From assembly GCA_963678065.2 (NCBI GenBank), contig CAXXVZ010000005.1, positions 96,001 to 160,000 on the forward strand: DNA of 64,000 bases. The letters run 5' to 3'. Below are positions 1 through 17,837 of the stretch, piece by piece. Within the stretch, counting starts at the first letter, position 1; every line of letters begins with the position of its first letter. This stretch comes from Treponemataceae bacterium. GTDB lineage: Bacteria > Spirochaetota > Spirochaetia > Treponematales > Rectinemataceae. The position numbers and the translations under genes are program-made. The notes under the pieces are model-generated. The model was not told the DNA's origin and ran no database searches. It worked only from the letters and a program-made list of their open reading frames with translations.

Positions 1-4
1 ATGA

Positions 5-817
5 ATGTCGGCAAAACTCGGAATCATCGGAACCGGAAAACTCGGCGAGGCGATACTCGCGGGCATGTTCGCCCGCAAGCTCGTCGATCCGGGAGAAGTC
101 ATCCTCTCGGTCCGGACCGAGAAGCACCGCGCCGACCTGGAAGCCCGCTACGGCGTCCGCGCAGTACTCGACAACAATATCATCGCCGCGGAGGCCCAGA
201 CCATCATCGTCGCCGTCAAACCCAAGACAGTGACGGAGGTCCTGAGCCACATCGCCCCCCACCTCAGGGCGGGGCAGCTCATCATCTCGACGGTCGCGGG
301 CGTCGTCCTCGACCACTTCGAGACGATGGTCCCCGGCACTGTCGGCGTCATCCGGAGCATGCCGAACATGGCCGTCGCTGTCGGCGAGGGCATGACCGTC
401 CTCTCCCCGGGACGGGCCGTGACCGAAGCCCAGCTGGACTGGGCGCGCGAGATCTTCGGGTCTGTCGGCCGCGTCCTCGTCCTCGCGGAAGAGCACATGG
501 ACGCCGTCACCGGACTGTCCGGATCGGGCCCCGCCTACGTCTACATCATCATCGAGTCGCTCGCGGACGGCGGGGTCAAGCTGGGCCTCCCGCGCGACGT
601 GTCCATCGAGCTCGCCGCTCAGACCGTCCTCGGCGCGGCCAAGAACGTCATCGTCACCGGCGAGCACCCGGCCAAGCTCAAGGACCAGGTCACGACACCC
701 GCCGGCGTCACCATCGACGGTATTCTCGAACTCGAGGAGGGCGGCCTGCGCGTCACCCTCATCAAGGCCGTCGTCAAGGCGGCGGAGAGGGCGAAGGCGC
801 TGCTCAGGAAAAACTGA
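5..817 (+). CDS. proC: Pyrroline-5-carboxylate reductase
   Basis: GxGxxG (IGTGKLG), AVKP, RSMPN, TGLSGSGPAY and VTTPAGVT motifs typical of ProC; 270 aa. Confidence 0.95.
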   Translation: MSAKLGIIGTGKLGEAILAGMFARKLVDPGEVILSVRTEKHRADLEARYGVRAVLDNNIIAAEAQTIIVAVKPKTVTEVLSHIAPHLRAGQLIISTVAGVVLDHFETMVPGTVGVIRSMPNMAVAVGEGMTVLSPGRAVTEAQLDWAREIFGSVGRVLVLAEEHMDAVTGLSGSGPAYVYIIIESLADGGVKLGLPRDVSIELAAQTVLGAAKNVIVTGEHPAKLKDQVTTPAGVTIDGILELEEGGLRVTLIKAVVKAAERAKALLRKN

Positions 818-827
818 CACTACGCCA

Positions 828-1676
828 TCAGGGGACGCCGCCATTCCGGTATTTTACCTGCGCCGTTCCCGCCGCATACCCATAGAGGGCGACGTAGTAT
901 GTCGGATCAGGCGTGGAAAATACTTTGGATTTCTGGCCAAGCGAAGACGAAGTCTCATTCCCGACGAATACGCCGCTCGTGTCGAAGACATAGAGGTCCA
1001 GGTCGCCGGAAATGCGGTTGATGAAGAAGGTCGTCGTCCCGAGCGCTGCCGGCACCTTGTACCATTTCTCGCCGCGCAGCCCGAGACTCGCGGTGGACGA
1101 CCAGATGTTTTCCGTGCCCGTGAGATCTTCGACCAGGACGGGGATGCAATTCACCGTCGCGTATGAAGTGCTCCCGCCAGTTATCGTAATGCCGGAATTC
1201 CAGCCAATCGTCACGGGGTCGGAGCCATTGGCGTTGTTGTAGATCGATACCTTGAGCCAGTCGTAGCCGCCTGCGGGAATCTCCGAGATGCTCACGACGC
1301 CGAGGGTCGAACTCGTATTTATGGAAGTGGCGGGATAGCTCCAGGCCGAGAATGCCAAATTCGAACCCTTGTACAGTTCAAAGAGAACTTTGTCGGCCCG
1401 CACCCATGCCTTTGACGCGGCATCAACCGCTCCGGTCCGCTTCTGTGCCGCCTCGAGGGTCGACGGGGCCGCTATCTCGGGAGGTATACCCTCAGGCAGA
1501 GTGACGATTCCCCTCGAAGAACTGAGGGGTTCCAGGCTGACGGCGAGACTCCCCTTCGTCGAGGGATCGATGATGATAGTGCAGCCAGCGCTCACAAGCG
1601 CCACAGCAGCCATGGCTGCGAGGAGAAGGACCGGGCGTACATGACGGCGCGCCCTTGATTCCGAAACGGTTTTCAT
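828..1676 (-). CDS. Hypothetical lipoprotein with a C-terminal PPC-like beta domain
   Basis: Signal peptide ending LVSAG-C (lipobox-like); C-terminus KWYKV...GDLDLYVFD...TYYVALYGY resembles PPC domains; start chosen at ATG 1676. Confidence 0.55.
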   Translation of the reverse strand: MKTVSESRARRHVRPVLLLAAMAAVALVSAGCTIIIDPSTKGSLAVSLEPLSSSRGIVTLPEGIPPEIAAPSTLEAAQKRTGAVDAASKAWVRADKVLFELYKGSNLAFSAWSYPATSINTSSTLGVVSISEIPAGGYDWLKVSIYNNANGSDPVTIGWNSGITITGGSTSYATVNCIPVLVEDLTGTENIWSSTASLGLRGEKWYKVPAALGTTTFFINRISGDLDLYVFDTSGVFVGNETSSSLGQKSKVFSTPDPTYYVALYGYAAGTAQVKYRNGGVP

Positions 1677-1826
1677 CGCGGTGAACTCCCTTGTCGTATG
1701 CTTCACTACAATATACCGCCATTTCCCGGACTTTTCAGTTCAGACTCGGGTCGGGCCCCAGCGCGACAGGCCGTGGCGCCGCAAGCTCAAGGCGTAGCTG
1801 TGACACAGCGAGCGTGAGCGCAGGCT

Positions 1827-2621
1827 TTAGGCGTAGCTGTGAAGTCCCGAGAGGAGGAAGTTCACGCCGAAGAAGGTGAAGACCGTGCACAAAAAACCGA
1901 TGACGGAAACCCAGGCGGGGAGCAGTCCGGTCTTTCGCTTGATGAAGCGGATGTGCAGATAGAAGGTGTAGATGAGCCAGGTGACGAGGGCCCAGGTTTC
2001 CTTCGGATCCCAGGACCACCAGACTCCCCAGGCCTGCTCGGCCCAGATGGCGCCGAAGACCAGGGCCCCCGCCGTGAAGATCGGGAAACCGACAGCGATG
2101 GCCGTGTAGGTTATGCGATCGAAATCGGGGCGCTTCCTTTCATCCCGCGTGAAGATATAGGCCAGGGAGGCGACGAACCCGGCCACGAAGAAGGCCTCTC
2201 CGACAAAGGAGAGCGCCACGTGGGCGACGAGCCAGCCGGAGCGCAGAGCGGGGATCGGCGCGAGGAGATCCTTGGGAGCGAGAGGTGAGCTCGCGACAGC
2301 GAGGAGAACGAGGGCGACGACAGTCGCGCCGAACTGCACGAAGGGCAGGAAAATAAAGCGCTTCTGTGTCCGGTAAGCGAATCCCATCAGGCAGACGAAA
2401 CCCGAATAGAAGACCAGGGACTCGAATGTGCCGGTCAGGGCGGGGAATCCGATCCTGAACGAGCGGTCGGCGATGACGGCAGCGAGAAGCGCGGCAGCGC
2501 CGAGTAGGAGAAAACGGGATGCAGGCTCTCTCTCCCCTCCTTCCTTGCGGAAGAGGAATACCGCCTGGACTGCGGCAGAGGCGAGTATCAGCAGGATTGC
2601 GATGGTCGGCAGGCTGTTCAT
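1827..2621 (-). CDS. ccsA: Cytochrome c biogenesis protein CcsA/ResC (System II heme lyase)
   Basis: WWD motif WAEQAWGVWWSWDPKETW, conserved His residues (VAHV, YLH, GLHSY), many TM helices. Confidence 0.95.
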   Translation of the reverse strand: MNSLPTIAILLILASAAVQAVFLFRKEGGEREPASRFLLLGAAALLAAVIADRSFRIGFPALTGTFESLVFYSGFVCLMGFAYRTQKRFIFLPFVQFGATVVALVLLAVASSPLAPKDLLAPIPALRSGWLVAHVALSFVGEAFFVAGFVASLAYIFTRDERKRPDFDRITYTAIAVGFPIFTAGALVFGAIWAEQAWGVWWSWDPKETWALVTWLIYTFYLHIRFIKRKTGLLPAWVSVIGFLCTVFTFFGVNFLLSGLHSYA

Positions 2622-3553
2622 GGCTTCATGTCTCCGAGTTTCTGGATGAAGGTGAGAAAGAGTCCCACCACGACGAAGATGAGGGCGGCGAGAATGACAG
2701 GATACCCGGGATCGACGACGGCGTGGAGGCCGGTGATATCCGAGTCTTTCATCCCGGAGATGAGGAAGGGCCCGGCCCTGTCTCCGGCAGCGACGCGGAG
2801 GACATCGGTCTTTTCGCCCGATTTGAGGCGGATCACGGCCTTTCCCTTTCCGTCGTCGGCGGCCATGAAGTAGAGACTGGAGCCTCCGTCGGAGAACTCA
2901 CCGCCCTGGTCGAGCAGATGCTCCTTCCCGGCGGAATCCGCGACCGAGAGGGCGCGCTTCGCGCTATGCGAGAACTGGTAGAGGCTCATGGTGCCGAGCT
3001 TCAGGGGATGGTTGACGCGGATGGCGTAGCCTTCCTTCTCGATCTTCCCGTCCTTCATGACGCTCACGGTGGAAGTCCAATCCTTGGGCCGCCCGTCGTC
3101 GTAGGTCTCGTAGCTGAAGTCCGTCAACTCGAGGACGCGTGACTCGGGCATCTCGACCTTGTCGCCGACGGAGAGGCTCACCGACCCTTCCTGTTTGCCG
3201 GAGAAAGAGACGACGGAGCCGATCACGAGGATCATGAGGCCGAGGTGGAGAATGTCGGGACCGTGCCTGCGTCGACCTTTTTTCCGCAATTCGCGTAAAA
3301 GCCTGTCGATGGTGCAGACAGAGAGGTTGACGAAGAAGGCAAGGACCGGAATCAGGAAGAGGATCGAGGTGAAAAAGCGGGAAAATCCCGTCTGCACGAT
3401 GAGTTCGCCGAGGAGCCTTCCGTACTTTGCGGTGTAGGCCCCGGCATCCAGTCCCTGGGGAATGAGGGTCGCGAGGATTCCTGTCAAGGCGAGCCAGGCG
3501 ATGAGGAAGACAGCGAGCTTCATCGATTTGAGGGATTTGAAGAGTCGTTCCAC
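2618..3553 (-). CDS. resB: Cytochrome c biogenesis protein ResB/Ccs1 (System II)
   Basis: SMKLAVFLI...ATLIPQ, NLSVCT, ILHLGL, IRVNHPL and DPGYPVI motifs; 4-bp overlap with ccsA; GTG start at 3553 lies downstream of a predicted promoter. Confidence 0.88.
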   Translation of the reverse strand: MERLFKSLKSMKLAVFLIAWLALTGILATLIPQGLDAGAYTAKYGRLLGELIVQTGFSRFFTSILFLIPVLAFFVNLSVCTIDRLLRELRKKGRRRHGPDILHLGLMILVIGSVVSFSGKQEGSVSLSVGDKVEMPESRVLELTDFSYETYDDGRPKDWTSTVSVMKDGKIEKEGYAIRVNHPLKLGTMSLYQFSHSAKRALSVADSAGKEHLLDQGGEFSDGGSSLYFMAADDGKGKAVIRLKSGEKTDVLRVAAGDRAGPFLISGMKDSDITGLHAVVDPGYPVILAALIFVVVGLFLTFIQKLGDMKP

Positions 3554-3594
3554 GGATTTCCGCCTTGAGGAATCGAGAGATCGTCGGTGCAAAA

Positions 3595-3624
3595 ATGATA
3601 GTCGCCGCCTCATGGACCTGTCAA
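3595..3624 (-). promoter_or_regulatory. Sigma70-type promoter for resB-ccsA
   Basis: TTGACA (3624-3619), 18-nt spacer, TATCAT (3600-3595) on the minus strand. Confidence 0.5.
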
Positions 3625-3635
3625 CAACAATTCGA

Positions 3636-3657
3636 TGATAAAGATAGAATTTTATCA
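3636..3657. promoter_or_regulatory. Inverted repeat TGATAAA-N8-TTTATCA between the divergent promoters (candidate regulator site)
   Basis: Perfect 7-bp inverted repeat in the AT-rich intergenic region. Confidence 0.4.
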
Positions 3658-3667
3658 ACATATCGAG

Positions 3668-3696: not shown

Positions 3697-3728
3697 TCAG
3701 ATATAAATCTATACAAAGGAGGTATGCC

Positions 3729-4946
3729 ATGAAACGGATGACTGCGCTTGCAGTCTTCGCGCTCGCGGGTCTGGCGGCTTACGCCGCCGAATCGACCTGC
3801 GTCACCTGCCACACAGACAGCGAGACCATGAAATCGCTCTTCGTGCCGCCGGCGATGAGCGCGTCCGAAGGCGAGGGCTGAGCGGGAACTCCTCCCCCGG
3901 TCCGGGCGGATGAACTTTACCTGGGATTCGTCGTCGACAAGTCCCTTCTGGAAACCGATCCACATCTCAAAAATGACTGCACGTTCTGCCACAAAGGCGA
4001 CCCGACGGCTTCCGACAGGAGCCTCGCGCACGCGGGCGTGAACAAGCGTCCCTCCGACGACCTTGCGACCTGCGGGACATGTCACGAGGAGACAGTCAAA
4101 ACCTACAAACTCTCCCTCCACTACACGACAGCGGGCATGAAGAGCGGGGTGAATCCCCGGTTCTCCGGCGCGGAAGCCTCGGTCTACGATCAGAAGGTCT
4201 TCGAGCAGTCCTGTCGCTCCTGCCACGCGTCATGCGGCGACTGTCACGTCAAGAGCCCCACCATCTCCGGCGTCGATCTCGGTCTCATGGCCGGACACAA
4301 ATTTGTAAAGAAAGACGAGTCGAAGACCTGCGCGCTCTGCCACGGCGGACGCGTCTACCCCGAGTTCACGGGCGAATACGGCGGCAACGCCGATGTCCAC
4401 TACCAAAAAGGCATGTCCTGCACGGACTGCCACTCAGAGTCCGAAATTCATGCCAGCTCCGGAGCACAGAGCGACAGGCGCGCCGTTTCCGACAAGCCGT
4501 CCTGCGTGAAGTGCCACGCTCCCGGGACGGAGAAGACCGAAAAGGCGAGAACCGCGCACGCCGACCACGGCGATATGGTCTCCTGTTCCGCCTGCCACAG
4601 CTCGGCGGAGTACCGCGGCTGTGCATCCTGCCATCTCGGCGAAGGCGCTACATCGAGCCCCATGTTCATGCTCGGCGACAATCCGAGGAAACCCGGCCAG
4701 CTCACCACGCTGCGCCTCGTTCCCACGGTCCGCGACACGTTCAAGAAGGTCGGTATCGTCCAGGAAAACTTCGATTCGATGCCCAATCTCTGGGATACCG
4801 TTCCGCACAACACGCGCAAGCGCACCGAGCGCACGCGCGACTGCTCTGTCTGCCACTCGGAGAAGCGGAACGTCCTCACCGAGGAAACGCTCCCGAAGGG
4901 CGGATCCGAGGCCAACAAGAAACTCATTTTCGAGTTCATGTATTGA
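3729..4946 (+). CDS. Secreted 11-heme c-type cytochrome, predicted selenoprotein (Sec at codon 51, UGA 3879-3881); 405 aa
   Basis: RBS plus ATG 3729, signal peptide MKRMTALAVFALAGLAAYA, CVTCH, then ...SEGEG-UGA-AGTPPP... in frame with CTFCH and the nine CxxCH motifs of ORF 4038-4946; hairpin after the UGA; selC/selA/selB about 2 kb downstream. Confidence 0.88.
3882..3910 (+). promoter_or_regulatory. Candidate bacterial SECIS element
   Basis: UCC-U-CCC-(CCGGUCC)-GGG-C-GGA hairpin with a G-containing GGUC apical loop about 17 nt after the UGA. Confidence 0.6.
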
Positions 4947-4965
4947 ATTTTCAAGGAGAAAAACG

Positions 4966-5844
4966 ATGAAGAAGCTGTTTGCCATCCTCGTGCTCGCCGC
5001 CTGCCTCGCGCCGGCTGCCTTCGCAAGAGACATCGATCCCGTAGTCTCGGCCGCGTGGCTGGAGTCCAACCTCGCCAACCCCAACCTCGTCGTCATGGAC
5101 GTCCGCTCGGTGGAGAACTACAAGGCCGGCCACATTCCCGGCGCCGTCAATGTCATAGGGGCCAGTCTCTATGTGAAGAAGGGCGAGATCAACAACGAGG
5201 TGCCCGAGATGGATGAGCTCTCGGATACCCTCTCCGCGGCCGGAGTCAAGGCCGACTCCTGGATCGTCGTCGTCGAAACCGACGGCTCCCGCCTCGCCTG
5301 GTCCACGCGCGTCGCCTGGACTCTGAAATACGTCGGGATCGAGAACGTCGCCTTCCTCGACGGCGGCTACGCGGCCTGGACCAAGGCCGCCAAGCCCGTC
5401 TCCAAGGACGCGGTCACGAAGTCAGGCGGCTACACCGCCAAGGCGGTTCCCGCCTACTTCGCGGACAAGGCCCAGGTCCTTGCGGCAAAAGACGCTCAGA
5501 TCGTCGATGCGCGCACCTACGATACCTACTTCGGACTCGTCAGGCAGTCCTTCGTCGCTCAGGCCGGACACTTCCCCGGCGCGTATTCTCTCCCCTACAC
5601 CTGGATCCTCAACGCCGACAACATGGTCAAGTCCAAGGCCGACCTGGCCGCCTACGCCGCGAAGCTCGGACTCGACCCCTCCATCGAGACCATCGTCTAC
5701 TGCGACTCGGGCGTCCTGTGCACCGCCTGGTGGTATGCCTTCTCCGAGATACTCGGCTGGAAGAATGTCAGGAGCTTCGACGGATCCTCCCAGGTTCTCA
5801 CCGCCGATCCATCAGTCAAGTATGTGGCTCTGACCTGGCGCTGA
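4966..5844 (+). CDS. Secreted tandem-domain rhodanese/sulfurtransferase (possibly extended to 5928 by UGA readthrough)
   Basis: RBS AAGGAG; signal peptide MKKLFAILVLAACLAPAAFA; DVRS..YKAGHIPGA, LDGGYAAW, GHFPGA, active-site loop VYCDSGVLC, FDGS. Confidence 0.9.
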   Translation: MKKLFAILVLAACLAPAAFARDIDPVVSAAWLESNLANPNLVVMDVRSVENYKAGHIPGAVNVIGASLYVKKGEINNEVPEMDELSDTLSAAGVKADSWIVVVETDGSRLAWSTRVAWTLKYVGIENVAFLDGGYAAWTKAAKPVSKDAVTKSGGYTAKAVPAYFADKAQVLAAKDAQIVDARTYDTYFGLVRQSFVAQAGHFPGAYSLPYTWILNADNMVKSKADLAAYAAKLGLDPSIETIVYCDSGVLCTAWWYAFSEILGWKNVRSFDGSSQVLTADPSVKYVALTWR

Positions 5845-5928
5845 GCCCGGACGGCGACGGTCCGGTACTGCTACTCCTGTCATCACGCCGAGACCCTCGT
5901 CAACTGCAACAAGTGCCACAAGGAGTGA
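5845..5928 (+). other. In-frame diheme peptide ARTATVRYCYSCHHAETLVNCNKCHKE after the rhodanese UGA (readthrough extension or remnant of a small cytochrome gene)
   Basis: Two CxxCH motifs (CYSCH, CNKCH) in 27 codons, no start codon of its own, ends at TGA 5926-5928. Confidence 0.6.
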
Positions 5929-5988
5929 GGCGGCCGGGCACTGCGGAGGACTAAAAACTCCAAAGGCTCTGTCACAGAGACGATTGTC

Positions 5989-6022
5989 GATGAGGGGCCG
6001 GCCGCAAAGCCGGCCCCTCATC
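5989..6022. terminator. 14-bp GC stem-loop after the cytochrome-rhodanese operon
   Basis: GATGAGGGGCCGGC-cgcaaa-GCCGGCCCCTCATC perfect stem; no long U-tract. Confidence 0.55.
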
Positions 6023-6063
6023 ATCGAGGCCATTCCGGTCTTGGCCATCCCGGACAGGAAAGC

Positions 6064-6093
6064 TTGACCCCGCATCCGGAGTGCGGCTAGTAT
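6064..6093 (+). promoter_or_regulatory. Sigma70-type promoter of selC-selA-selB
   Basis: TTGACC-N18-TAGTAT, 7 nt upstream of the tRNA 5' end. Confidence 0.5.
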
Positions 6094-6100
6094 CGCCTGC

Positions 6101-6189
6101 GGAAGCAGACGGGGTCTGGTGGCTCCCGCGGTCTTCAAAACCGTTGGCCGCGCCTTGCGCGGCGGCAGGTCCGATTCCTGCCTCTTCCG
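6101..6189 (+). tRNA. selC: tRNA-Sec (anticodon UCA)
   Basis: Acceptor GGAAG(C)AG/CTCTTCC-G; 6-bp D stem GGGGTC-TGGT-GGCTCC; anticodon loop CT-TCA-AA (6135-6137); long variable arm GCCGCGC-CTT-GCGCGGC; T arm GCAGG-TCCGATT-CCTGC; directly upstream of selA. Confidence 0.95.
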
Positions 6190-6223
6190 ATCACCATGAC
6201 CGGCACCCGCCGAGGCAGAAAGC

Positions 6224-7672
6224 ATGACAGAACCATCCAGAGATATCCGTTTGCCCCAGATCGGCAGGATTCTCGAGAATCCGGATATCGCCGCGTTTTT
6301 TCCCCTCATCTCGCGTCCTTTGACCGCAAAGTCGGTGGCCGAAACGGTGGCGCGCATCCGCGCCTCAGCCCTGGCAGGCTCCGTTTCAGTCTCCGATACC
6401 GAAGTCATCGGACGCTGCGTCGACGACTGCCGCGCCCTCGCATCCAGACGACTCAGGCCTGTGCTCAACGCGACGGGCATCCTCCTTCACACGAACCTCG
6501 GCCGTTCGCCTTTGAGCGAGGGCGCGTGGGAGAAAGCCCGGCGGATAAATACAGGCTACTCGAACCTCGAGTTCGACCTCGGGGCGGGAGAACGGGGAAG
6601 GCGCGGGGGTCTCGCGCCTGAATTGGCCGCCCTTCTTTCGGGAGCCGAATCCGCCCTCATCGTCAACAACAACGCGGCCGCAGTGCTCCTCGCGCTCGGA
6701 ACTCTCGCCGCGGGTCGCGAAGTCATCGTCTCACGAGGGGAGCAGGTTCAGATCGGCGGCGGGTTCCGCATCCCGGAGATCCTCGCCCTGTCCGGCGCGA
6801 AACTCGTCGAGGTGGGAACGACGAATGTCACCACGGTCGACGACTACCTTCAGGCCCTCGGGCCGGAGACTGCCGCCGTCCTCGTGGTTCACAGCTCCAA
6901 CTTCGCGATCCGCGGATTCACCAGGAAGGCGGCGCTCGCCGACTTGGTCGGGGCGCTCCCCTCCCGCGTTCCCGTCATCGCCGATCAGGGATCGGGATGC
7001 ACCACAGAGCGCATCGAAGGCGAGATCCCGGTTTCGCGGTACATCGCGGACGGAGCAGCCCTCGTCTGTTTTTCCGGGGACAAGCTCGCGGGCGGACCCC
7101 AGGCGGGCATAATCGCGGGCCGCAGCGACCTCGTCGCGGCCTGCGCGCGTCATCCGCTCATGCGGGCGTTCCGACCCGGGAAAACCATCCTGTCGCTTCT
7201 GGAGCAGAGACTCGTCGAGATTCTCTCCGGAGTTCCCGCTCCGGCTTCGCCGCGGGATGCGGCCGGGCTCGAGACCTTCGGCGCGGCGATCCTCGCCGGA
7301 TTGCCAGGGGGAACGGCGCGCCTCGTCCCCTCTGTCGCGTCCACGGGAGGCGGAACGAGTCCGGACGAAGGATTTCCTTCGCGCGCGCTCGAACTGCTTC
7401 CACCGCTCGCCGCGCAGCGCCTTCTCGAAGCATTCCGGCAGGGCGATCCACCGCTCGTCGCGTGCGTGCGTGCGGGAAAGATTCGGCTCGACCTCGCGTC
7501 GCTGCGCGGCGAAGACCCGCGGCTCGTCGCACAGCTCATCATGGAGGCCCTCGCCTCCTGCGACAGCGATGCCCCATCGGGGAAGCGCGCCGACTCCGCC
7601 TGTTTCGACGTCTGTCATTCTTCTCCGCTCAGGGTTGGCGGCCCGGCGTCGGGTCCGGTCACAGGAGACTGA
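6224..7672 (+). CDS. selA: L-seryl-tRNA(Sec) selenium transferase
   Basis: VLNATGILLHTNLGRSPL, YSNLEFDL, VNNNAAAVLL, SRGEQVQIGGGFRIPE, EVGTTN and PLP-Lys motif FSGDKLAGGPQAG. Confidence 0.97.
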   Translation: MTEPSRDIRLPQIGRILENPDIAAFFPLISRPLTAKSVAETVARIRASALAGSVSVSDTEVIGRCVDDCRALASRRLRPVLNATGILLHTNLGRSPLSEGAWEKARRINTGYSNLEFDLGAGERGRRGGLAPELAALLSGAESALIVNNNAAAVLLALGTLAAGREVIVSRGEQVQIGGGFRIPEILALSGAKLVEVGTTNVTTVDDYLQALGPETAAVLVVHSSNFAIRGFTRKAALADLVGALPSRVPVIADQGSGCTTERIEGEIPVSRYIADGAALVCFSGDKLAGGPQAGIIAGRSDLVAACARHPLMRAFRPGKTILSLLEQRLVEILSGVPAPASPRDAAGLETFGAAILAGLPGGTARLVPSVASTGGGTSPDEGFPSRALELLPPLAAQRLLEAFRQGDPPLVACVRAGKIRLDLASLRGEDPRLVAQLIMEALASCDSDAPSGKRADSACFDVCHSSPLRVGGPASGPVTGD

Positions 7673-7676
7673 GAGG

Positions 7677-9290
7677 ATGCCTGTCGTCGGGACGAGCGGC
7701 CATGTGGATCACGGCAAGACGACCCTCATCGCAGCCCTGACCGGCGTCGACACAGACCGCTTGCCCGAGGAAAAAGCCCGCGGCATGACCACGGATCTCG
7801 GTTTCGCCCATTTTGCAGACTCGCAGGGCAATCCCGTCGGCATCATCGATGTGCCGGGCCACGAACGGTACATGCGCAACATGTCCGCCGGAGCTTTCGG
7901 CATCGATGGCGCCATCCTCGTCGTCGCCGCGAACGACGGCTGGATGGAACAGACGGGGCGACATCTCCAGATTCTCGAGGCTAACAAGGTTCCAATCCTC
8001 GCTGTCGCCCTGACGAAGGTCGACCTCGTCGCTCCCGACCGCGTGAAGGAAGTCGGCGAGGATATCGCGCGCAGGTTGCATCGTTCGCCCTCGGGGTCGA
8101 TTCCGGGTCCTGCGCAGCCCTCACCGGCGGGAGTAGAGAAGGAACTGCGGCGCCCGGCCGTATGTCCGGTCGACGCCGTGCGTGGCCTGGGTCTCGATGA
8201 ACTGAAATCAGCCGTTCTCGGCGGTCTCTCCCGTCTCGGGCCGCGCCCTTTCCCGACGGGTCCCTTGCTCTTCATCGACCGGGTCTTCCCGCTGAAGGGG
8301 ATTGGCGTTGTCGTCGCGGGGAGTCTTCGGGGCGGTCAGCTGAGGCAGGACGATGAACTCTTCCTCTATCCCTCCGGAGAGAAGCTGAACCTGCGGGGCC
8401 TTCAGGCATACGGACTGCCGGTCAGAGAGGCGCCCGAAGGCTCGCGGGTCGCGCTGGCCCTCTCGCGCCCCCGCGCGGAACCGCGCCGGGGTGACTGCGT
8501 CGCTTCCGCAAAGGCCGGCATCGTGGCAGCGCACTCCGTCTTCTTGCGGACCCGCCCTCCTCAAGGCGAGATGCCGGGTGCCGGCCGCCTGCGCGCCGGC
8601 ATGGAAGTCGAACTGTCAGCGGGCACCGCGAACAGGATCGCGACACTCTACCCATCGCGCGTTCCCGGCGTCCTCCATCTCGCGTGGACAGGAGAGCTCG
8701 CGCTGTACCGCGATGAGACTGTCATCGTATTGCGACATGGAGGCGCCGATATTCTCGCCTCGGGAAACATCGCGGCATTCGGAGGCGACTCGGCTCCCGG
8801 ACGTCGCCGGATCGAAGAGGAGCTGAGACAGAGCCTTCTGCCAACCTCTCCAGAGCTCTCTGTTCCGGCAAAGGGCACGAAGCTGTCCCCGGCAAGGCCT
8901 CTCCAGCGGGAGGTCCCTCCCCTCGCCCCATCGGCCCTCCAGGTACTCGGGCAGCTTCGCTCGGCCGGGGAACCGGGCATCGACGCTGAGACACGGCCTG
9001 TGCCCGGACTTCGCGCGGATCTTTCGGCGCTCTGCGCGCAAAACCTTGCCCTGAGCCTCGATGCGGGCCTGTTCATGGAAACTGGCCGCTACCACATCCT
9101 GACGGCGGCCATCCTCAGAGGGCGCGGGCCAGGCAGCGGCTTCGGCATCAAGGAAGCGAAAGACGCCACCTCGCTGTCGAGAAAATGGATCATTCCGCTC
9201 CTCAATCGCATGGAGAGGGACGGCTATGTCAAACGCGCGGGCGACACGAGAATCGTGACCGGGAAAGCGCCAGGACCTGAATCGGCCTGA
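7677..9290 (+). CDS. selB: Selenocysteine-specific elongation factor SelB (compact, 537 aa)
   Basis: GTSGHVDHGKT, DRLPEEKARGMTTDLGF, DVPGHE, TKVD, IDRVF; C-terminal winged-helix motif LSRKWIIPLL; start ATG 7677. Confidence 0.95.
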   Translation: MPVVGTSGHVDHGKTTLIAALTGVDTDRLPEEKARGMTTDLGFAHFADSQGNPVGIIDVPGHERYMRNMSAGAFGIDGAILVVAANDGWMEQTGRHLQILEANKVPILAVALTKVDLVAPDRVKEVGEDIARRLHRSPSGSIPGPAQPSPAGVEKELRRPAVCPVDAVRGLGLDELKSAVLGGLSRLGPRPFPTGPLLFIDRVFPLKGIGVVVAGSLRGGQLRQDDELFLYPSGEKLNLRGLQAYGLPVREAPEGSRVALALSRPRAEPRRGDCVASAKAGIVAAHSVFLRTRPPQGEMPGAGRLRAGMEVELSAGTANRIATLYPSRVPGVLHLAWTGELALYRDETVIVLRHGGADILASGNIAAFGGDSAPGRRRIEEELRQSLLPTSPELSVPAKGTKLSPARPLQREVPPLAPSALQVLGQLRSAGEPGIDAETRPVPGLRADLSALCAQNLALSLDAGLFMETGRYHILTAAILRGRGPGSGFGIKEAKDATSLSRKWIIPLLNRMERDGYVKRAGDTRIVTGKAPGPESA

Positions 9291-9432
9291 AGTCGACAAC
9301 CTCGCGGCGAACTGCGGAGGTATGAAACCCGTCTGCGAATGAACAACATGTCCAGGCCCTGATTGTCGCGCCGGAGCGCGATATTGTCTCGTTCAGATCG
9401 GGGAATCGGTTTCCATATAGCAGGGAGAAAAA

Positions 9433-9837
9433 ATGAAAAGCATGAAATTTTTGCCAGGCCTCATCGCGGTCGCGTTCATCTCCGCAGGTTTCCCGGGATG
9501 CGCGAAACTCGCGGAGATGAAGGCGATGACGGACAGCATCGGCACTCTCACCATCGGTCGCGTCGATGTTGCGGCTGTGCGGGACGGCGACTACGAAGGG
9601 TCTCAGGACAATGGAGCCGTGACAGCCAGAGTGGCCGTCACGGTGCGGGGAGGAAAAATCACGGCGATAAAGGTGCTGGATCACAGGCACGGGCCGGGAA
9701 AAAACCACGACGCCGGAGCCATATCCGACAAGGTCGTGGCGGAACAGAGTCTTCAGGTCGACGCGATCGCCGGGGCCACCGCCTCGAGCAAAGTAGTGCT
9801 CAAGGCCATCGAAAACGCGCTGACGAAAGGCATATAG
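9433..9837 (+). CDS. FMN-binding (flavinylation-type) domain protein, probable lipoprotein
   Basis: N-terminal hydrophobic stretch ending GFPG-C; DGDYEG, VTVRGGKITAIKV, VDAIAGATASS motif. Confidence 0.85.
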   Translation: MKSMKFLPGLIAVAFISAGFPGCAKLAEMKAMTDSIGTLTIGRVDVAAVRDGDYEGSQDNGAVTARVAVTVRGGKITAIKVLDHRHGPGKNHDAGAISDKVVAEQSLQVDAIAGATASSKVVLKAIENALTKGI

Positions 9838-9973
9838 ACGCTGACTGCTCTGGCCGCTCTCTCCGCCCGCCGCGCCGACTGAAGATCCTCCCGCGAGCTC
9901 TCAGGTCCAAAAGGTCCGAAGGGCCAGGCTGCCCGAACAAAGACCGGCGCAGCCGCATCGCGGGCCTTTCCCC

Positions 9974-11908
9974 TTACTTTAGGACCGATCTGGCCACCCT
10001 GAATCCGATAGTCCGGTCGTTGTTGAGCGGATTGTGATAGTTGCGGAAGGGGACGCGGGCGAAATCGGGCAGACGGTTCCATCCTCCTCCCCTCTTGACT
10101 CTCATGGTTCCGCTTGCCGGTCCCTTGGGATCCACCAGCGGTTTCCCTGTCAACGCAGGATAGATTCCATACCAGTCGTGACACCATTCCCACACATTCC
10201 CCGTCATGTCGAAGAGTCCGAGCCCATTGGCGGCCCTTGTGCCGACAGGCTTGGTTCCGCCGCCGGAATTCCGTGAGTTCCAGGACACAGCGTCGGCATC
10301 GTCCGAGCCTGAATACTTCAGCACGACAGAGCCGGGAAGAGTGCCGATCAGCCCGCCCCGTGCGGCGAATTCCCATTCGGCCTCGGTGGGCAGGCGGTAG
10401 CCGGGTTTGGAAAAATCGGCGGCGACGGTGGTCCCGGACACCGAGTAGACCCGCGGCAGGCCCGCGAGATCCGAGAGCGCGTTGCAGTAGCCGACGGCGT
10501 TGAACCAGCTCACCTGCTCCACAGGTCTGGAATCCGCCTCGATGCCATTCTTGAAGAAGCTCGGGTTGGACCCCATGATGCTCCTGTATTGGGCCTGCGT
10601 AACTTCGTTCCTGCCGATGTAGAACGCAAGGAGCGTCACGGGATGAACTGGCTTTTCGTCGGATTCGCCTGAGGCGGAACCCATGTTGAAAGTGCCCCCC
10701 TGGACCAACACCATTTCAGGAGTATCGACGAAGGTGTAGGAGACGACCGTGGCCGGGGAATCCTTCCAGCCCGGCTTGCCCGCGATAGCTGTTATCGTGA
10801 CCGAGCCCTTTGCCTGGAAGGGCGACGAGTACAGGTTCCCCCGCGAGGACGAGGGGAGGCTGCCGTCCATGGTATAGCGGATCACCGCTCCCGGAGTGGC
10901 ACAGGACATCGACACGGTGCGGTCAGGCGTATATGTCCCCGCGGCCGGCGAGACAAGGGGGGACGCGACCGTCCCCGTGATGACGAACTCTCCGACGGCG
11001 ACGGACGATATCCGGGAATCGGCCCCGACAGCGACCGCTTTGACGGTTTTCGTGCTTTCGATCCTGAAAGGAGCGGAGTAAACCGTCCCGGTTCCAGCCC
11101 CCGGTTCGCTCCCGTCAGTCGTGTAGCGGATACCCACAACGTCAGAGGCGGCTGCGAGGCTCACCGTGACAGCTTCCTGGAAGGTACCCGGCTCCGGGCT
11201 GAAGCGGGGAAGTGATGGAGGGAGGGCCACCGGCATCCCGGCCACCGGAGAGGCCGGAGCGGCAGCTGTCGCCGGATTCCGGGATGCCTGGACTTCCGCC
11301 TCGTCGTCGAAATTCTTCGACGAAACGCTCGATTCTTTCCATCCCGATCTGAAGGCTATGGCCTTCATGGTCATCCCCTTCTTCACGATCGCGGGTATCC
11401 CGGCGTACTCCATCCCGTAGACGGGGGTCGGTTCCGATCCGTCCAGCGTGTATCGGATCCTGGCTTCAGGTGTCGCGGTGCTGAGCTTCACCATGGTCGT
11501 ACCCGCCGGGGGAGTCGCATCCAGAGACTTTTCGATGCCCGGGGCCGCCACGGTTCCCGTGACGACATAGGTCGCGCTGACAATGTCGCTGGGCTTGCCG
11601 GAGGCGGGGACTGCGATGGCCCTGATAGTCTGGGATTTGTTCACGGGAATCGGCTTCATGTAGGTCTGGCTCTTCGTGCCTTCCTGGGCCGATGGCTCGC
11701 TGCCGTCCACGGTGTAGTAAATTTTTGCCGCCGGATCGGCGGGAAGCAGCTCGACCTTCTGCGGGCTGGTGTACGTTCCGTTTGCGGGCTTGAAGGAAAC
11801 GGCGGGAGGGGCGTCCTTCCCTCCCTTCGCCGTCGCGCAGCCCGCGAGCAGGGCGGCGAGGGCCAGGATAGCTATAAAAGAAAGAGTGGTATTCTTGCGA
11901 TGCGTCAT
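9974..11908 (-). CDS. Lipoprotein with four chitobiase/Fn3-associated repeats and a C-terminal SUMF1/FGE-sulfatase-like domain
   Basis: Lipobox LLAG-C; four Y-T-x-DGS-x-P repeats; EVTQAQY, RLPTEAEWEFAARGG, GLFDMTGNVWEW, GFRVAR; RBS GAGGA before ATG 11908. Confidence 0.85.
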   Translation of the reverse strand: MTHRKNTTLSFIAILALAALLAGCATAKGGKDAPPAVSFKPANGTYTSPQKVELLPADPAAKIYYTVDGSEPSAQEGTKSQTYMKPIPVNKSQTIRAIAVPASGKPSDIVSATYVVTGTVAAPGIEKSLDATPPAGTTMVKLSTATPEARIRYTLDGSEPTPVYGMEYAGIPAIVKKGMTMKAIAFRSGWKESSVSSKNFDDEAEVQASRNPATAAAPASPVAGMPVALPPSLPRFSPEPGTFQEAVTVSLAAASDVVGIRYTTDGSEPGAGTGTVYSAPFRIESTKTVKAVAVGADSRISSVAVGEFVITGTVASPLVSPAAGTYTPDRTVSMSCATPGAVIRYTMDGSLPSSSRGNLYSSPFQAKGSVTITAIAGKPGWKDSPATVVSYTFVDTPEMVLVQGGTFNMGSASGESDEKPVHPVTLLAFYIGRNEVTQAQYRSIMGSNPSFFKNGIEADSRPVEQVSWFNAVGYCNALSDLAGLPRVYSVSGTTVAADFSKPGYRLPTEAEWEFAARGGLIGTLPGSVVLKYSGSDDADAVSWNSRNSGGGTKPVGTRAANGLGLFDMTGNVWEWCHDWYGIYPALTGKPLVDPKGPASGTMRVKRGGGWNRLPDFARVPFRNYHNPLNNDRTIGFRVARSVLK

Positions 11909-11983
11909 GGTGTGATCCTCCGGTTTCTTTTCCATTGTAGCTTCTTCGGAGCGGCACTCAAGAGAGTGTAACGGAAAATCGAC

Positions 11984-12019
11984 AAAAAACCCCGGAATCC
12001 CTTGTGCGCGGACTCCGGG
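11984..12019 (-). terminator. Rho-independent terminator downstream of argF
   Basis: Minus strand CCCGGAGTCC-loop-GGATTCCGGG followed by GTTTTTT. Confidence 0.65.
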
Positions 12020-12118
12020 GCATATGGTTTTGACAGTCAGGAAGGTTATCCGTCCTGAACCCTGGCGGCGCACCCTGGCGGCGCGCCCCAGAACGGAGGG
12101 ACGGCGCCCCATAGAGTC

Positions 12119-13266: not shown

Positions 13267-16200
13267 TCAGGGCTCCCGGACGAGGATGAACTCGACCCTT
13301 CTGTTCTTCCAGCGCGTGGCAGGGTCTTTCGGGTCGACGGCGGGCAGCGAGGAGCCCAGACCCGCGACAGTGAAGCGCCTCGAGTCGAAGCCGCGCGCCA
13401 CGAGGAGGTCGCGGATAAAGCTCGCCCGCGCAAGGGAGAGGGGGACAATCTCGCCCTTCTCTTCCGCCTCGACCTTGTCGGCCGGGAGTCCGTTGATCTT
13501 CCCCTCATTGTTCGCGTGTCCCTCGATGCGGATGCGGTAGTCGGGGAAGCGGGAGAGTATCTGGACGAGACGGGAGAGCACCTTCTGGTTCCTGGCCTCC
13601 GACTGGGGCGCGAGCCCGGAAAAATCGGCCAGGGAGGCGCGGAACTCGATGGAAGGGATGTTGATCCTGATCCGCGAACCTTCTCGCACGACGAGGACAT
13701 CGACGGCGATGATCCCGCTCACGACGACCTGCTTGCCGGCAAAATCGCGGATGCGCATGCGGAAAGGATAGTCGCTCGCGGCCTCCACTTTTTCTCCGCC
13801 GGGATTTTTTCCATCCCAGGTTATGGACACGGGAGGGGCGCCGTTGCCGCTCCAGACTCGGAAAAGCCTCTCGCGTGTCTCGCGGGAATCGGGAAGCCCC
13901 TCGCCTGAGGCGGACTCGAGGACTTCGAGTCTCCAGGATGCGACGCGCGAAGGATCGTCCACCGTGACAAGAAAGGTGACCATGTCCTTGATACCGTCGC
14001 CGTCGGGGCTGAAGAAGTCCGGCAGGACGATAACTTCCAGTTTCGGAGCCGCCTCCTCGACGAGGATGGTCCCGCTCGATGCCTGTGCGATATCGCCTTT
14101 CAGATACACGACCGCGAGTCGCCCGAATACCTGCCCCCGGACGACCGCCCCCGTTTCGTCCCGCCCGTCCCAGACGAGGCGGCCGGGAACATCGCCTCCG
14201 GAGCGCCTGAAAAATATTTTTTCCGACTTGTCGGCGGCCACGATGGAGAAACTCCACGACATGATCCTGGAGTTCCTGTCGACGATCAGCGTGAAGCCCA
14301 CTTCGTCCATGAATCCATCGCCGTCGGGCGAAATGGAACTCGCATCCGCCTTGACGAAGACCTTGGGTTTGTTCGTGTCGAGGGAGAATTCCACTGTCCG
14401 CGACTCGCACTGATCTCCATTCGGGTAGGAGACCGTGATTTTTGCCGCGTAGTCTCCGTTCGCGGCCTTGGCGCCTGAATCCGCAATTCCGTTCCAGATA
14501 ATCGACTTCGGGACTTCTCCCTTCCCCGCGAAACTGCGGACCCGAAGCGATTTCGCCATTTCCGGACTCGATCCTTGAGCGGGGGTCGACGGGAGGGCGA
14601 GCACTTCGAGCGCGTAGGATGAGGATTTCACTCTGCTTGTCGTCGTTATCCCGAAATTCACCGTATCGCCCACTCCGTCGCCGTCCGGGCTGAAAACGCT
14701 CGGTCCTACGGAAAGCGATACGGCCTTCCTGTCCGTATCGATCGCCACTTGTATGGGGCGGGAGACATATGAGTGCCCTGCGGCGTCGCTGCCTTTCAAG
14801 CGGTAATCATAGCTCCCGTCGGCCAGTCTCATTCCTCCGGAATCACTCCCGTCCCACTCGAGGAAGGATGGAAGCTTCGCGCCGAAATCCCAGACTCTCA
14901 GAAGAAGACCATCGGAGTTCGACAATTCGCCCTTCCAGAGATCTCCGGCCGTTCCCGTCTGGGTGAAGCGCACCCGGCTTCCCGCCCCGGGAACCGAAGG
15001 GTTGATAGCCTGCCTGTCTGCCTGGATGAAGGCTTCCGGCGGGCTGGTATCGAGGGAGAACCAGGGCGAGGAGGCCTCCCCCGCGAACCCGTTGCGGAGG
15101 GAGAAAACGAGAGTCGCGCGGTAGCGCCCATCTTCCCAGGCCTTCCCTGTGGCGGGATACTTTCCGTCCAAGGTGATTTTTTCCGGCAAGGGCTCGCCGG
15201 TCTTGCCTTCCTGTCTGCGAACTACCGTTCCCGCCGCGTTCCGGACTGTGATGGACCAGACAGAGGGGAGGACGGCGGGGACGAGGCGGGGCAAAAGGTT
15301 TATCGTCTCGAGAATGCCATCCCCGTCCGGACTGAAAATATCCGGATCGCAGAGGAGGCTCCCGACAGGCCGCGAAAGGTCGACGACAAAACTCCCGGAG
15401 AGGGCGGTCGCCACATTTCCGGCCTCATCCATGCCTGAAAGCTCGAGCCGATACTCGCCTTCGGGCACGACGGCTCCCGAGTCGTCCTTTCCGTCCCAGA
15501 GGAATGATGGGGGGGGAAGTCCCTGAAAACTCCGCGAGAAAAAGGCTTTCCCGCCCACGTCGAGCGCGCGCAGCCTCCACTGACTTCCTCCGCCCGCGGC
15601 TATCGAAAACGCGATAGTATCCTTCTGCCCATCCCCGTCCGGACTGAAAACGGGTATCGCATCGACGATGGAGATCTTCGCTTCGGGCGGGCTCGTGTCG
15701 ACCTGAAACACGGGACTGTAGACGACGAGCTTGTAGCCGTTGCCGTATTCGAGGCTCAGAGCCGCGCGGTAGCTGCCATCGGGGAGAGGATCGCCCTTGC
15801 CCGTCCTTCCCTCGAAGGCGAAGGCCTGTCCCGCCGCGAGCCTGGCCCGGTCCTGCGTGGACCAGAGCTCGAAACCGGAGTCGTCGAGAACGGAAATCCT
15901 GAACTCCGCGAGATCCCCGTCCGATTCGAGCCAAGGTCGAATGGCAAGAGAATCCTTCACCCCATCGCCGTTGGGACTGAAAACGAGGCTGTCGATGTCC
16001 AGTGTCGCCTTGGGGCTGCGGGTATCGATCCTGATCCCCTCCAGGGTCCTGGACGCCGAATTGCCCGCTCTGTCCCTGCCCGAGAGCCGCGCCGAATACA
16101 GGCCGTCCGGGAGGGTCGTGCCCGAGCCGTCCCTTCCTTTCCAGACAAAGTCCGCAGGAACAGAGTCGGCCCATCCTTCCGAAGCCACGACAACCCCGGA

Positions 16201-17721
16201 GGAATCGAAGATCTCCAGTTTCCACGTGGCTTCTTTCGAGCCTGCCGCGTGCAGGACGAGACTGTCCTTCCGTCCATCGCCGTCGGGGCTGAAGACCCCG
16301 TCTCCCTCGTACGAGAACGCGATCTCGGGCGGCCTTCGGTCAATGATCACCGCGAGGAAGCCTTCGTAGTCGCGTATCCATGGGCCGTCTATGGCGCGAT
16401 AGATGAATCCCGCGATGTATTCGCCGTCGGGCGCCGCCTGCGTCGCAGGCCTCTTTGCTTCGACCGTCGCCGTCGCTCCCTGTCGAAGCGCGGCCTTTGC
16501 TCCGCCGGTCAGTGTTCCGTCCCAGATGAGGCTCCGGGGCAGGTCGATCCCCGCGTGGACCAGGGCGAGTGTGTCGCCGGCGGGCCTCATTTTCTGCATG
16601 GAGTCGGGATGGTTGTGCGCGATCTCGGCGATGTGGACGAGAGTGCCTGAGTTTTTCTCCCGTACACAGAACTCCAGCGCGCCCGCGTTCAGGGAATGCG
16701 TCGCCGTAAGCGGTATTTCGAGCCTGTCCTGAATCCCGTCGCCATTCGGGGAGATGAAGACAGAAGATGTCTTGTCCGACATCTCCGGCCTGATCGCGAC
16801 CGAAGAACCCCACGCGTAGGAGAGTGATCCGGCGACCGCGGAGAGCTGTCCGTAAAGGGGCTCGTAAGCCACCCTGGTCGAAATTCGCGCGGGCGAGGAT
16901 TCGGGAAGGGCCGATCCTGCGGCGGGGCGCCCGAGAGGGATGGAGGCCGAGAGGCTCAAAGAAGGCAGAAGGCTCCGCTTCGTTCCCGCGCTGCAGTCCT
17001 TCCAGCCGATATCCCAGCCTGCGAGCAGACTGAAACCTTCTCCGAACGCCATGTCGAGCGAAGAGAAGAGTCCGATGTCAGTCAATCCGGGGGCAACAAT
17101 GCCGAGCCCGAGTCCCATCCTGAATCCTTCCCGTCGCACGAGGAGGCTGTGCATGGCGAGTTTCGCGCTCACCACTGGGTCGATACCGATCTTGGGCATG
17201 CTGCGGTACATGCCCAGGGCAGGAAGAGGAATTCCGCCCGATACGCCCAATCCTGAAAGGGAGAATCCCCAGGAAAACTCCTTGAGGAACCCCAGATCGC
17301 CCGCGAAGTGCTCGATCCCCAGGTCCAAAGCCAGGTTCCAGCCCAGGCCCCCATTGTCTCCGATGGCTCCCGAGAGTCCCGCACCGGCGGAAAATCCGGG
17401 ACCGAGGGGGGCAGCGTAGCCGATGCGCGCCGAGCCGAAGGTTCCGAGAGGCAGGTCAGTCATGGAGGCGGGAAGATTGAGATAACGGAGAGAGAGCCCG
17501 AAGCTTCCCTTTTCGCCGCGCAGGCTGTAGGCGAGGGAAGCGACCTGACCGAAACCCTGTGCGCCCGATCCGAAATCGGTCAGGCCGTCGAAGTCGAGGC
17601 TGAGGCTCTGGAAGGGTACAGTCTTCTCAGCCTTCGCGCTCTGGGCTTCCGCGCCGGAGACCGCGAAGGCGATGAGGATGAGCGAGACGAAAAAGGCGTG
17701 AAATGGAATCTCCTTTGACAT
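13267..17721 (-). CDS. Large outer-envelope protein with FlgD-Ig-like repeats and a C-terminal OmpA-like peptidoglycan-binding domain (1484 aa)
   Basis: Signal peptide; eight (F/I)SPxGDG repeats plus WDG motifs; C-terminal IRIEGHAN...LSLARA...NRRVEF. Confidence 0.85.
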
Positions 17722-17837
17722 CTGCGGTACCCGTCCCGGATTTCTGTATAATTCCAGTATCGGACGAAAATCCTGCGAATAAAAGGGCCGAAACAAAAGA
17801 GTCGCGGCCTGAAGCGGATCGGTCACCGCTTCACGGG

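Follow-up and report, generated by a model that had tools for sequence, protein, structure and literature searches.

Relation to described multiheme selenoproteins

To our knowledge, MccSep is the only multiheme selenoenzyme characterised so far. A publication of 2026 presents it as the sulfur reductase of Geobacter that had long been sought, a selenocysteine (Sec)-dependent multiheme reductase of polysulfide and selenite. It forms a 5-heme tetramer, and its Sec325 belongs to a C-terminal Ig-like domain and is located beside a heme that is ligated by Cys239 (PMC13510729). MccSep is ExtKL of Geobacter sulfurreducens (GSU2937-2936, NF040886) and the rhodanese-like protein ExtH is encoded in the same cluster (PMC13510729; PMC5877670). 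Here we describe a gene that invites comparison with this system. It lies in a stretch of 64,000 nucleotides (hereafter the window) from a Treponemataceae bacterium (GCA_963678065.2, contig CAXXVZ010000005.1, positions 96,001-160,000, forward strand), and its reading frame is interrupted by a single UGA. We consider, with a probability of roughly 0.7, that the UGA encodes Sec and that the product is an exported 11-heme cytochrome which acts together with a rhodanese as a sulfur or selenium reductase.

Similar to MccSep/ExtKL, the product of this gene is predicted to be a multiheme c-type cytochrome of the periplasm whose single Sec is specified by an in-frame UGA with a stem-loop downstream; in both cases the gene is split in two by annotation and a rhodanese-family protein is associated. 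Reduction of polysulfide and selenite would be a further shared property, which for the 11-heme cytochrome is a prediction. On the other hand, no sequence relationship with MccSep was found, and model NF040886 gave no match to the protein at E ≤ 0.001 and none in the whole genome. The cytochrome has 11 hemes instead of five, and its predicted Sec51 is found close to the N-terminus, in the stretch from heme 1 to heme 2, whereas the Sec of MccSep belongs to a C-terminal Ig-like domain. Unlike MccSep with its heme-ligating Cys239, it has no conserved Cys outside the CxxCH motifs, and its Sec-less close homologues carry Ala, Ser or Arg.

In passages of a 2026 review, the selenoprotein families with heme motifs are given as ExtKL, the GSU2204 family and proteins of the octaheme tetrathionate reductase (OTR) family, for which GenBank-annotated Sec forms are tabulated (PMC13188914); passages of a 2022 review add no further family of this kind (PMC9312934). 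The model for the GSU2204 family of CXXCH selenoproteins (NF041027) is not among the matches at E ≤ 0.001, the OTR family model (TIGR04315) gives no match to the protein at this threshold, and no NCBIfam model reaches its cut-off for the cytochrome or for eight relatives. The OTR of Shewanella oneidensis (PDB 1sp3) resembles the protein in being a periplasmic multiheme enzyme that acts on sulfur compounds, a function that is predicted for the latter, but it contains 8 CxxCH motifs as compared to 11. A term search in a survey of Desulfuromonadia cytochromes gave no matches for an 11-heme Sec cytochrome (PMC11492766), and full-text literature searches, which covered main texts, returned no description of one. 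The family appears to be absent from the protein-family libraries and selenoprotein lists that were compared.

In Wolinella succinogenes, the periplasmic rhodanese-like sulfur carrier Sud feeds polysulfide reductase (Psr), which is a membrane-anchored molybdopterin enzyme. A secreted sulfurtransferase that hands sulfane sulfur to a respiratory reductase is also what we propose here, but unlike Psr the presumed reductase would be a soluble multiheme selenoprotein. TsdA and SoxAX are His/Cys-ligated heme enzymes of thiosulfate oxidation (cited in PMC13510729). They would share with the cytochrome a chalcogen side chain that lies beside or ligates a c-type heme in sulfur chemistry; theirs, however, is a Cys, they carry two or three hemes and work in the oxidative direction, and no sequence match with them was found.

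The 11-heme reading frame

Between its ATG and position 4946 (Table 1) the frame contains the TGA of codon 51 as sole internal stop, and read through this codon it yields a product with 11 CxxCH motifs, as counted by eye and by script. Heme 1 is encoded ahead of the TGA, heme 2 between the TGA and the first downstream start (GTG 4038), and hemes 3-11 in the open reading frame (ORF) 4038-4946. This last ORF is the version that gene callers report (database entry P0003, 302 aa); its product starts with MNKRPSDD and is without a hydrophobic leader. Residues 1-19 of the read-through product (MKRMTALAVFALAGLAAYA) resemble, by inspection, a signal peptide of the Sec export pathway. All 22 Cys residues of the protein are within CxxCH motifs, none elsewhere. 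With 11 heme motifs, a leader and adjoining ccsB and resB genes the protein has the features of an exported multiheme c-type cytochrome, and judged from its sequence 3729-4946 is very likely one gene for such a protein.

These observations bear out several claims of an earlier reading made from the letters alone (the sequence-only reading), which had described an 11-heme product, had held that export is possible only through the upstream signal peptide, and had expected gene callers to truncate the gene. The leader and heme 1 are found upstream of the TGA in 89 of the 90 loci introduced below, and database entries are indeed shortened: 113 of the 120 best matches span only 66-86% of the read-through product. 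The entries are almost only leaderless fragments, named 'cytochrome c3 family protein' or 'hypothetical'.

Conservation of the UGA

For close homologues, 40 genomes of relatives were searched together with the own genome of the window (41 in all), and a GTDB scan with one genome per species gave 253 candidate stretches, 227 of which were confirmed. The best 80 of these 227 and 10 loci from the own genome and the relatives make up a set of 90 loci with 52-75% identity, and the codon aligned to the UGA was read by mapping the query onto all of them with tblastn. It is TGA in 90/90 loci (85 distinct sequence contexts). According to database labels, the carriers belong to Spirochaetota, Syntrophales/Smithella, Geobacter sp. 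OR-1, Pelobacter, Nitrospirota, Deferrimicrobia and Syntrophorhabdaceae. Among the 40 relatives' genomes, nine have the cytochrome gene (57-74% identity) with exactly one TGA within each match. One of these matches additionally shows a TAG; its frame is otherwise open from the ATG and the protein ends before the end of the query, and the TAG is taken as that gene's own stop.

The close homologues keep the protein motif GEG-U-AG(A/P)PPPV(R/K) on both sides of the TGA. Gly53 is invariant and the third base of its codon takes all four letters. Divergence at the three codon positions is 0.31/0.27/0.57 in codons 52-103 and 0.29/0.23/0.57 in codons 104-405. An independent contig from groundwater DNA spans 3700-5558 and is identical at 3879-3881; it has 6 differences inside the cytochrome gene, all at third positions of the frame, with 4037 among them. 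The degeneracy at Gly53, the divergence by codon position and the third-position differences of the groundwater contig show that the stretch from the TGA to GTG 4038 is translated in frame.

The family extends well beyond these loci. A profile-free search of 1.84 billion representatives (50%-identity library) found 449 representatives of the cytochrome superfamily at E ≤ 0.001, and many relatives at 31-40% identity start exactly where the read-through protein resumes after the TGA. Metagenome contigs were scanned with ten of the distant relatives, which gave at least 528 confirmed stretches; the best 80 were used, and 74 of these had enough upstream DNA for reading the site. TGA is found at the same site in 71/74 of these distant loci, with TGG in the other three, in a motif GEG-U-GG-x-(L/V)(P/A)PLE-x-WEKV. 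A query limited to residues 1-105 yielded 767 candidates, none of which was scored, and gave no census of full-length forms. With these numbers the family, which is unrelated to MccSep in sequence, appears to be far larger than the latter, and it spans Spirochaetota, Syntrophales, Geobacter, Nitrospirota and lipoprotein forms of other lineages.

The distribution of the TGA bears directly on the simplest alternative, that it is a true stop, either in a broken gene or separating a 50-residue monoheme peptide from a leaderless 9-heme protein that starts at GTG 4038. This corresponds to the gene callers' version and to the short span of most database matches. A nonsense mutation would not persist across phyla, however, and the TGA in all 90 close and 71 of 74 distant loci contradicts a true stop. 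Furthermore, the 52 codons from the TGA to GTG 4038, heme 2 included, evolve as coding sequence. In cytochrome maturation by system II, a leaderless c-type cytochrome cannot reach the heme-attachment machinery, which also speaks against a functional 9-heme protein from GTG 4038. A true stop is hardly credible on these grounds, and one gene that is read through the UGA remains the preferred explanation.

Full-length relatives give information on the residue at this position. In an alignment of 26 distant full-length relatives, the Sec column holds Cys in 11, as in GEGCGG, and Cys is the classic counterpart of Sec. W is aligned at this column in P0138 and P0139, and the full-length close entries P0017 and P0040 show W at the Sec site. 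In the distant relative P0150 (715 aa), an 11-heme cytochrome and two C-terminal rhodanese domains form one fusion protein, and the Sec column is occupied by Tyr.

The hairpin downstream of the UGA

In bacteria, a selenocysteine insertion sequence (SECIS) is a stem-loop just after the UGA whose apical loop contains a G (G-U) at a distance of about 16-37 nt. The UGA and the 39 nt that follow were folded to the minimum free energy (MFE) structure. It has G-U at +22/+23, counted from the U of the UGA, within the apical loop of a hairpin, which agrees with this description of a SECIS. A G-U in the apical loop of the MFE fold is found in 74 of 85 distinct sequences of the close clade. In a common register, positions 15-20 pair with 27-32 in 91.2% of cells; pair 19-28 is C-G in 54, U-G in 10 and G-C in 4 sequences, and the covariation score is above that of all 500 shuffles. 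Of the 58 four-fold sites, those in codons 55-58 rank with the most constrained, and the Pro55 codon ends in U in 77/83 sequences. A scan of 3700-6300 against Rfam at E ≤ 1 returned no SECIS family, only the tRNA-Sec and a weak CC0196 match.

The distant branch has a hairpin of other sequence at the same place, with the loop G21-U22-U23. Its stem shows clear compensatory changes: at pair 16-28, 36 sequences have C-G and another 36 have G-C, and at pair 15-29 there are 51 with G-C and 13 with A-U. The covariation score of 0.194, as compared to 0.076 for shuffles, is reached by none of 500.

In the 45 nt after the TGA of loci L101-L180 (metagenome contigs), the residues that flank the SECIS loop co-vary as well, with LPPLE-A-W in some sequences and VAPLE-P-W in others, because pair 16-28 joins base 1 of one of the two codons to base 2 of its partner. 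The RNA stem thus imposes a covariation on the protein.

The selenocysteine machinery

The genes for Sec synthesis and insertion are close by. The TGA of codon 51 is 2.2 kb from the tRNA-Sec gene, with selA and selB directly downstream of the latter; the start of selB was set at ATG 7677, just past the selA stop. A selD gene is located on another contig of the same genome (345.8 bits), which has selC, selA, selB and selD all present. Among the 41 genomes searched, selA occurs in 9/10 that carry the cytochrome and in 6/31 without it, counts that are not independent as the genomes are related. In seven genomes selA is found on the cytochrome contig, within about 6 kb. The formate dehydrogenase alpha subunit of the host genome has no in-frame stop, so the cytochrome may be the main client of the host's Sec machinery. 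Searches of the own genome for GrdA and GrdB gave no match, but control searches were equally silent, so that this negative does not speak for their absence.

The same data bear on a selenium-free read-through of the UGA, for example through near-cognate insertion of Trp or Cys or through a local signal for recoding, in which case the protein would be full-length but no selenoprotein. The three distant TGG codons, the W aligned in P0138 and P0139 and the W printed in P0017 and P0040 are in line with it. However, locus L037, which matches P0017, has TGA in its DNA, so the W in P0017 is a gene caller's code-4-type reading. The tRNA-Sec, selA and selB genes that adjoin the cytochrome gene, the co-occurrence of selA with the cytochrome, the loop G-U at the spacing of bacterial SECIS elements and the Cys in distant relatives all speak against selenium-free read-through as well, which is very improbable.

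Decoding of the UGA at 3879-3881 as selenocysteine is thus assigned a high degree of confidence from the comparisons above. TGA is not reassigned in the host, where it terminates the cytochrome, rhodanese, selA and selB genes. The central claim of the sequence-only reading, a single gene read through a Sec codon, is borne out by the conserved TGA, the covarying hairpin, the adjoining Sec machinery and the Cys in distant relatives. That reading had looked to homologues with an aligned TGA or Cys at position 51; both are found, TGA in the close and Cys in the distant relatives, with conservation on both flanks. The hairpin that it had described after the UGA is present at the claimed place, with a loop GUC instead of the GGUC that it had given.

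Structure and heme ligands

Comparison of the structure model to the PDB with Foldseek gave nothing at E ≤ 0.001; the match to OTR (1sp3) has E 0.13 and is not significant. A sequence search of the PDB found only weak NrfA-type matches over about 60 residues. Nine His residues outside the CxxCH motifs are invariant in the family and at least 90% conserved in a 73-sequence alignment of the superfamily, and together with Met229 these face 11 hemes, which leaves room for an open or a Sec-capped catalytic heme.

The rhodanese partner

A gene for a secreted tandem-rhodanese sulfurtransferase follows the cytochrome gene (Table 1). Its best NCBIfam matches are 3-mercaptopyruvate sulfurtransferase and ExtH, both under the cut-off. 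Of the 90 close loci, 72 have a rhodanese homologue immediately downstream in the same orientation and 7 have one elsewhere in the locus; in 11/90 none was found, some of these having little downstream DNA. All 72 distinct partners have a leader-like N-terminus and a CD[ST]G-type loop. In the distant branch, with flanks of 1.5 kb each, 19/80 loci show a rhodanese-like match. Besides the cytochrome-rhodanese pair, nothing is conserved in four other loci that were inspected.

The end of the rhodanese gene in the window has a peculiarity (5842-5928). Beyond the TGA that closes the gene, the frame continues without a stop for 27 codons, with two CxxCH motifs (...YCYSCHH...CNKCHKE), up to another TGA. 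This tail lacks its own start codon, and a 6-bp hairpin lies directly 3' of the first TGA. The CxxCH tail is found in this genome only, the other rhodanese loci ending in TAA (45), TAG (8) or a tail-less TGA (24). The tail may be what is left of the end of a cytochrome gene, or else a second read-through that is specific to this lineage.

Proposed function

A chalcogen redox role of the cytochrome together with the rhodanese is considered somewhat more probable than not. The reductive direction and a sulfane-sulfur substrate are proposed more tentatively, at somewhat less than an even chance. In the proposed mechanism, SelB would bind the hairpin, which has G-U at +22/+23 in its loop, and bring Sec-tRNA to the UGA. 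The pre-protein would be exported by the Sec pathway and receive its hemes from the neighbouring CcsBA. On the Cys of its CDSG loop, the periplasmic rhodanese would form a persulfide with sulfane sulfur drawn from polysulfide or thiosulfate, and would hand this sulfur to the selenolate of Sec51, which would act as nucleophile. Electrons from the heme chain would then reduce the Se-S bond, or a Se-Se or selenite adduct, with release of sulfide. The enzyme would be a molybdenum-free sulfur or selenium reductase that is analogous, but not homologous, to MccSep/ExtKL with ExtH.

The cytochromes could constitute a second, unrelated and much larger family of multiheme selenoenzymes. Its members would have 11 hemes, and their sole chalcogen side chain outside the heme motifs would be a Sec, or in some branches a Cys, that sits on a Gly-rich loop separating heme 1 from heme 2 and perhaps ligates or caps the catalytic heme. 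They would always be coupled to a secreted rhodanese, and in the spirochaete a self-sufficient cassette of ccsBA, cytochrome, rhodanese, selC, selA and selB would hold both maturation systems essentially for one protein. We put this wider proposal only just below an even chance.

The main functional alternative accepts the Sec but makes Sec51 an axial heme ligand (His/Sec, like the His/Cys of TsdA and SoxAX) in a protein that oxidises thiosulfate or sulfide delivered by the rhodanese, or that merely carries electrons. The number of conserved His residues fits such a role, since up to two hemes are without a conserved His as distal ligand, and so do the lack of Cys outside the CxxCH motifs and the locus, which has no module for reductant input. 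The chemistry of MccSep is moreover akin to the reverse of the TsdA/SoxAX reaction (PMC13510729). In contrast, homologues with Ala, Ser, Arg, Trp and other non-ligating residues would lose the ligand. The carriers are, per database labels, anaerobes, syntrophs and sulfur or metal reducers, and the best structural match, although not significant, is a reductase. We regard an axial-ligand or oxidative role as unlikely and retain the reductase with a nucleophilic Sec51 as the preferred explanation.

Several observations weigh against this explanation in whole or in part. The first concerns the residue itself. Five close homologues have Ala, Ser or Arg at the site and none has Cys (P0035, P0042, P0044, P0054, P0089), and three distant loci have Trp, encoded by TGG (L121, L140, L141). 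The sequence-only reading had taken a sense codon in homologues as a sign of a nonsense mutation; sense codons do occur in these few sequences, but the TGA prevails in both branches. Because Ala/Ser/Arg and Trp forms exist, residue 51 is dispensable for folding and may, but need not, be catalytic. In the structure model the Sec loop has a predicted local distance difference test score (pLDDT) of about 60, and the part that aligns to OTR comprises residues 76-405, with the Sec loop and heme 1 outside it.

The hairpin and the Sec machinery also show weaker points. The MFE loop lacks G-U in 11 of the 85 sequences, and covariation in the close clade is modest, with 5 cells changed on both sides. 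SelB scores 231 bits, slightly below the NCBIfam cut-off of 242, and in genome G014 (92% complete), which has the cytochrome gene, selA was not found. RNA-library contigs reach 4815-5575 only, with the UGA outside, and these may be DNA carry-over. Finally, no conserved gene for electron input was found in the neighbourhoods of four non-spirochaete loci or in the window. The protein is the sole multiheme cytochrome of the genome, its neighbourhood beyond the cytochrome-rhodanese pair is not conserved, and no electron donor is apparent.

The 71-nt stretch 3870-3940, folded as one piece, is ordinary in energy (z 0.49; 139/200 shuffles fold as well), which likewise counts against the hairpin. Its MFE structure pairs the UGA with upstream sequence, and this fold, no better than shuffles, was set aside as evidence. 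Because the TGA stands at the aligned codon in 90/90 loci, the arrangement of TGA and hairpin is not considered a matter of chance despite this ordinary energy.

The losses of Sec follow a pattern that is unusual for a selenoprotein family, as they give Ala, Arg and Ser in the close clade or Trp in the three distant loci, and never Cys; this hints that the Sec-less forms, close and distant, gave up the chemistry at the site. In a tree made with a quick IQ-TREE method, in which four of the five Ala/Ser/Arg homologues were placed (P0089 was not), these four sit at three places inside the Sec clade, which has a support of 99 and a long stem.

A correct reading of the gene would, if the explanation is true, change the annotation of hundreds of genomes and add an entry to the prokaryotic selenoproteome, and it would indicate a molybdenum-free route of sulfur or selenium reduction in syntrophs and spirochaetes. 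The window contributes the spirochaete cassette, in which the genome's sole multiheme cytochrome has its own ccsBA and is linked to selC-selA-selB. As this one cytochrome is physically linked to the Sec machinery, the question why the host keeps selenocysteine becomes directly testable.

Locus and genome context

The own genome (G000) is a 5.27-Mb assembly that is 99.9% complete. When all its stop-to-stop frames of 60 aa or more are considered, that of the cytochrome is the only one to contain at least two CxxCH motifs. The locus (Table 1) reads as a cassette of ccsBA, cytochrome, rhodanese, selC, selA and selB, and the genes beyond it are unrelated. A ccsB gene is found near the cytochrome in 13/90 loci and resB in 15/90, all of Spirochaetota type. 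The GC content of the cassette is 0.63, as compared to 0.614 for the window and 0.589 for the genome, which gives no clear sign of recent transfer.

Table 1. Features of the cytochrome locus, with positions in the window.
Feature	Position	Strand	Basis and details
ccsB, system II cytochrome c biogenesis, heme-handling subunit	1827..2621	-	TIGR03144 188.3 bits (cut-off 187.6), PF01578; divergent from cytochrome gene
resB/ccs1, system II cytochrome c biogenesis	2618..3661	-	PF05140 ResB, E 2.8e-35
Ribosome-binding site AAAGGAGG	3715..3722	+	6 nt ahead of ATG 3729; read from sequence
Cytochrome gene	3729..4946	+	ATG 3729-3731, end TGA 4944-4946; 405 residues, 11 CxxCH, predicted Sec at residue 51
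UGA codon 51 (predicted Sec51)	3879..3881	+	motif SEGEG-U-AGTPPPVR; TGA at aligned codon in 90/90 loci
SECIS-like hairpin	3890..3913	+	stem 3890-3899/3903-3913, loop GUC 3900-3902
Secreted tandem-rhodanese sulfurtransferase, 292 aa	4966..5844	+	PF00581 twice, E 1e-30; CDSGVLC loop in second domain, leader
tRNA-Sec (selC), anticodon UCA	6100..6190	+	ARAGORN; Rfam RF01852 63.5 bits, gathering score 47
selA, L-seryl-tRNA(Sec) selenium transferase	6224..7672	+	TIGR00474 425 bits, cut-off 267.9
selB, Sec-specific elongation factor	7677..9290	+	TIGR00475 231 bits, cut-off 242; PF09107 SelB winged helix, PF00009

Between the rhodanese gene and the tRNA-Sec gene lies a G+C-rich inverted repeat, gaggggccggcc...ggccggcccctc (5990-6020), which corresponds to the weak Rfam CC0196 match (21.8 bits, E 0.064). 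It looks like a terminator that would part the cytochrome-rhodanese transcript from selC-selAB. In the same intergenic region, an independent strain lacks 15 bases at 6027 and has 2 extra bases at 5969.

The ORFs 1-882(+), 831-1706(-) and 9363-10034(+) gave no family matches, and related loci do not contain them; two of the three resemble Arg-rich artefacts of a wrong frame. Two large surface-type proteins unrelated to the cytochrome are encoded on the minus strand: a 712-aa protein with four chitobiase/Fn3-associated repeats and an FGE-sulfatase domain (9977-12112), and a 1572-aa protein with FlgD-Ig, CHU_C, Big_13 and OmpA domains (13270-17985).

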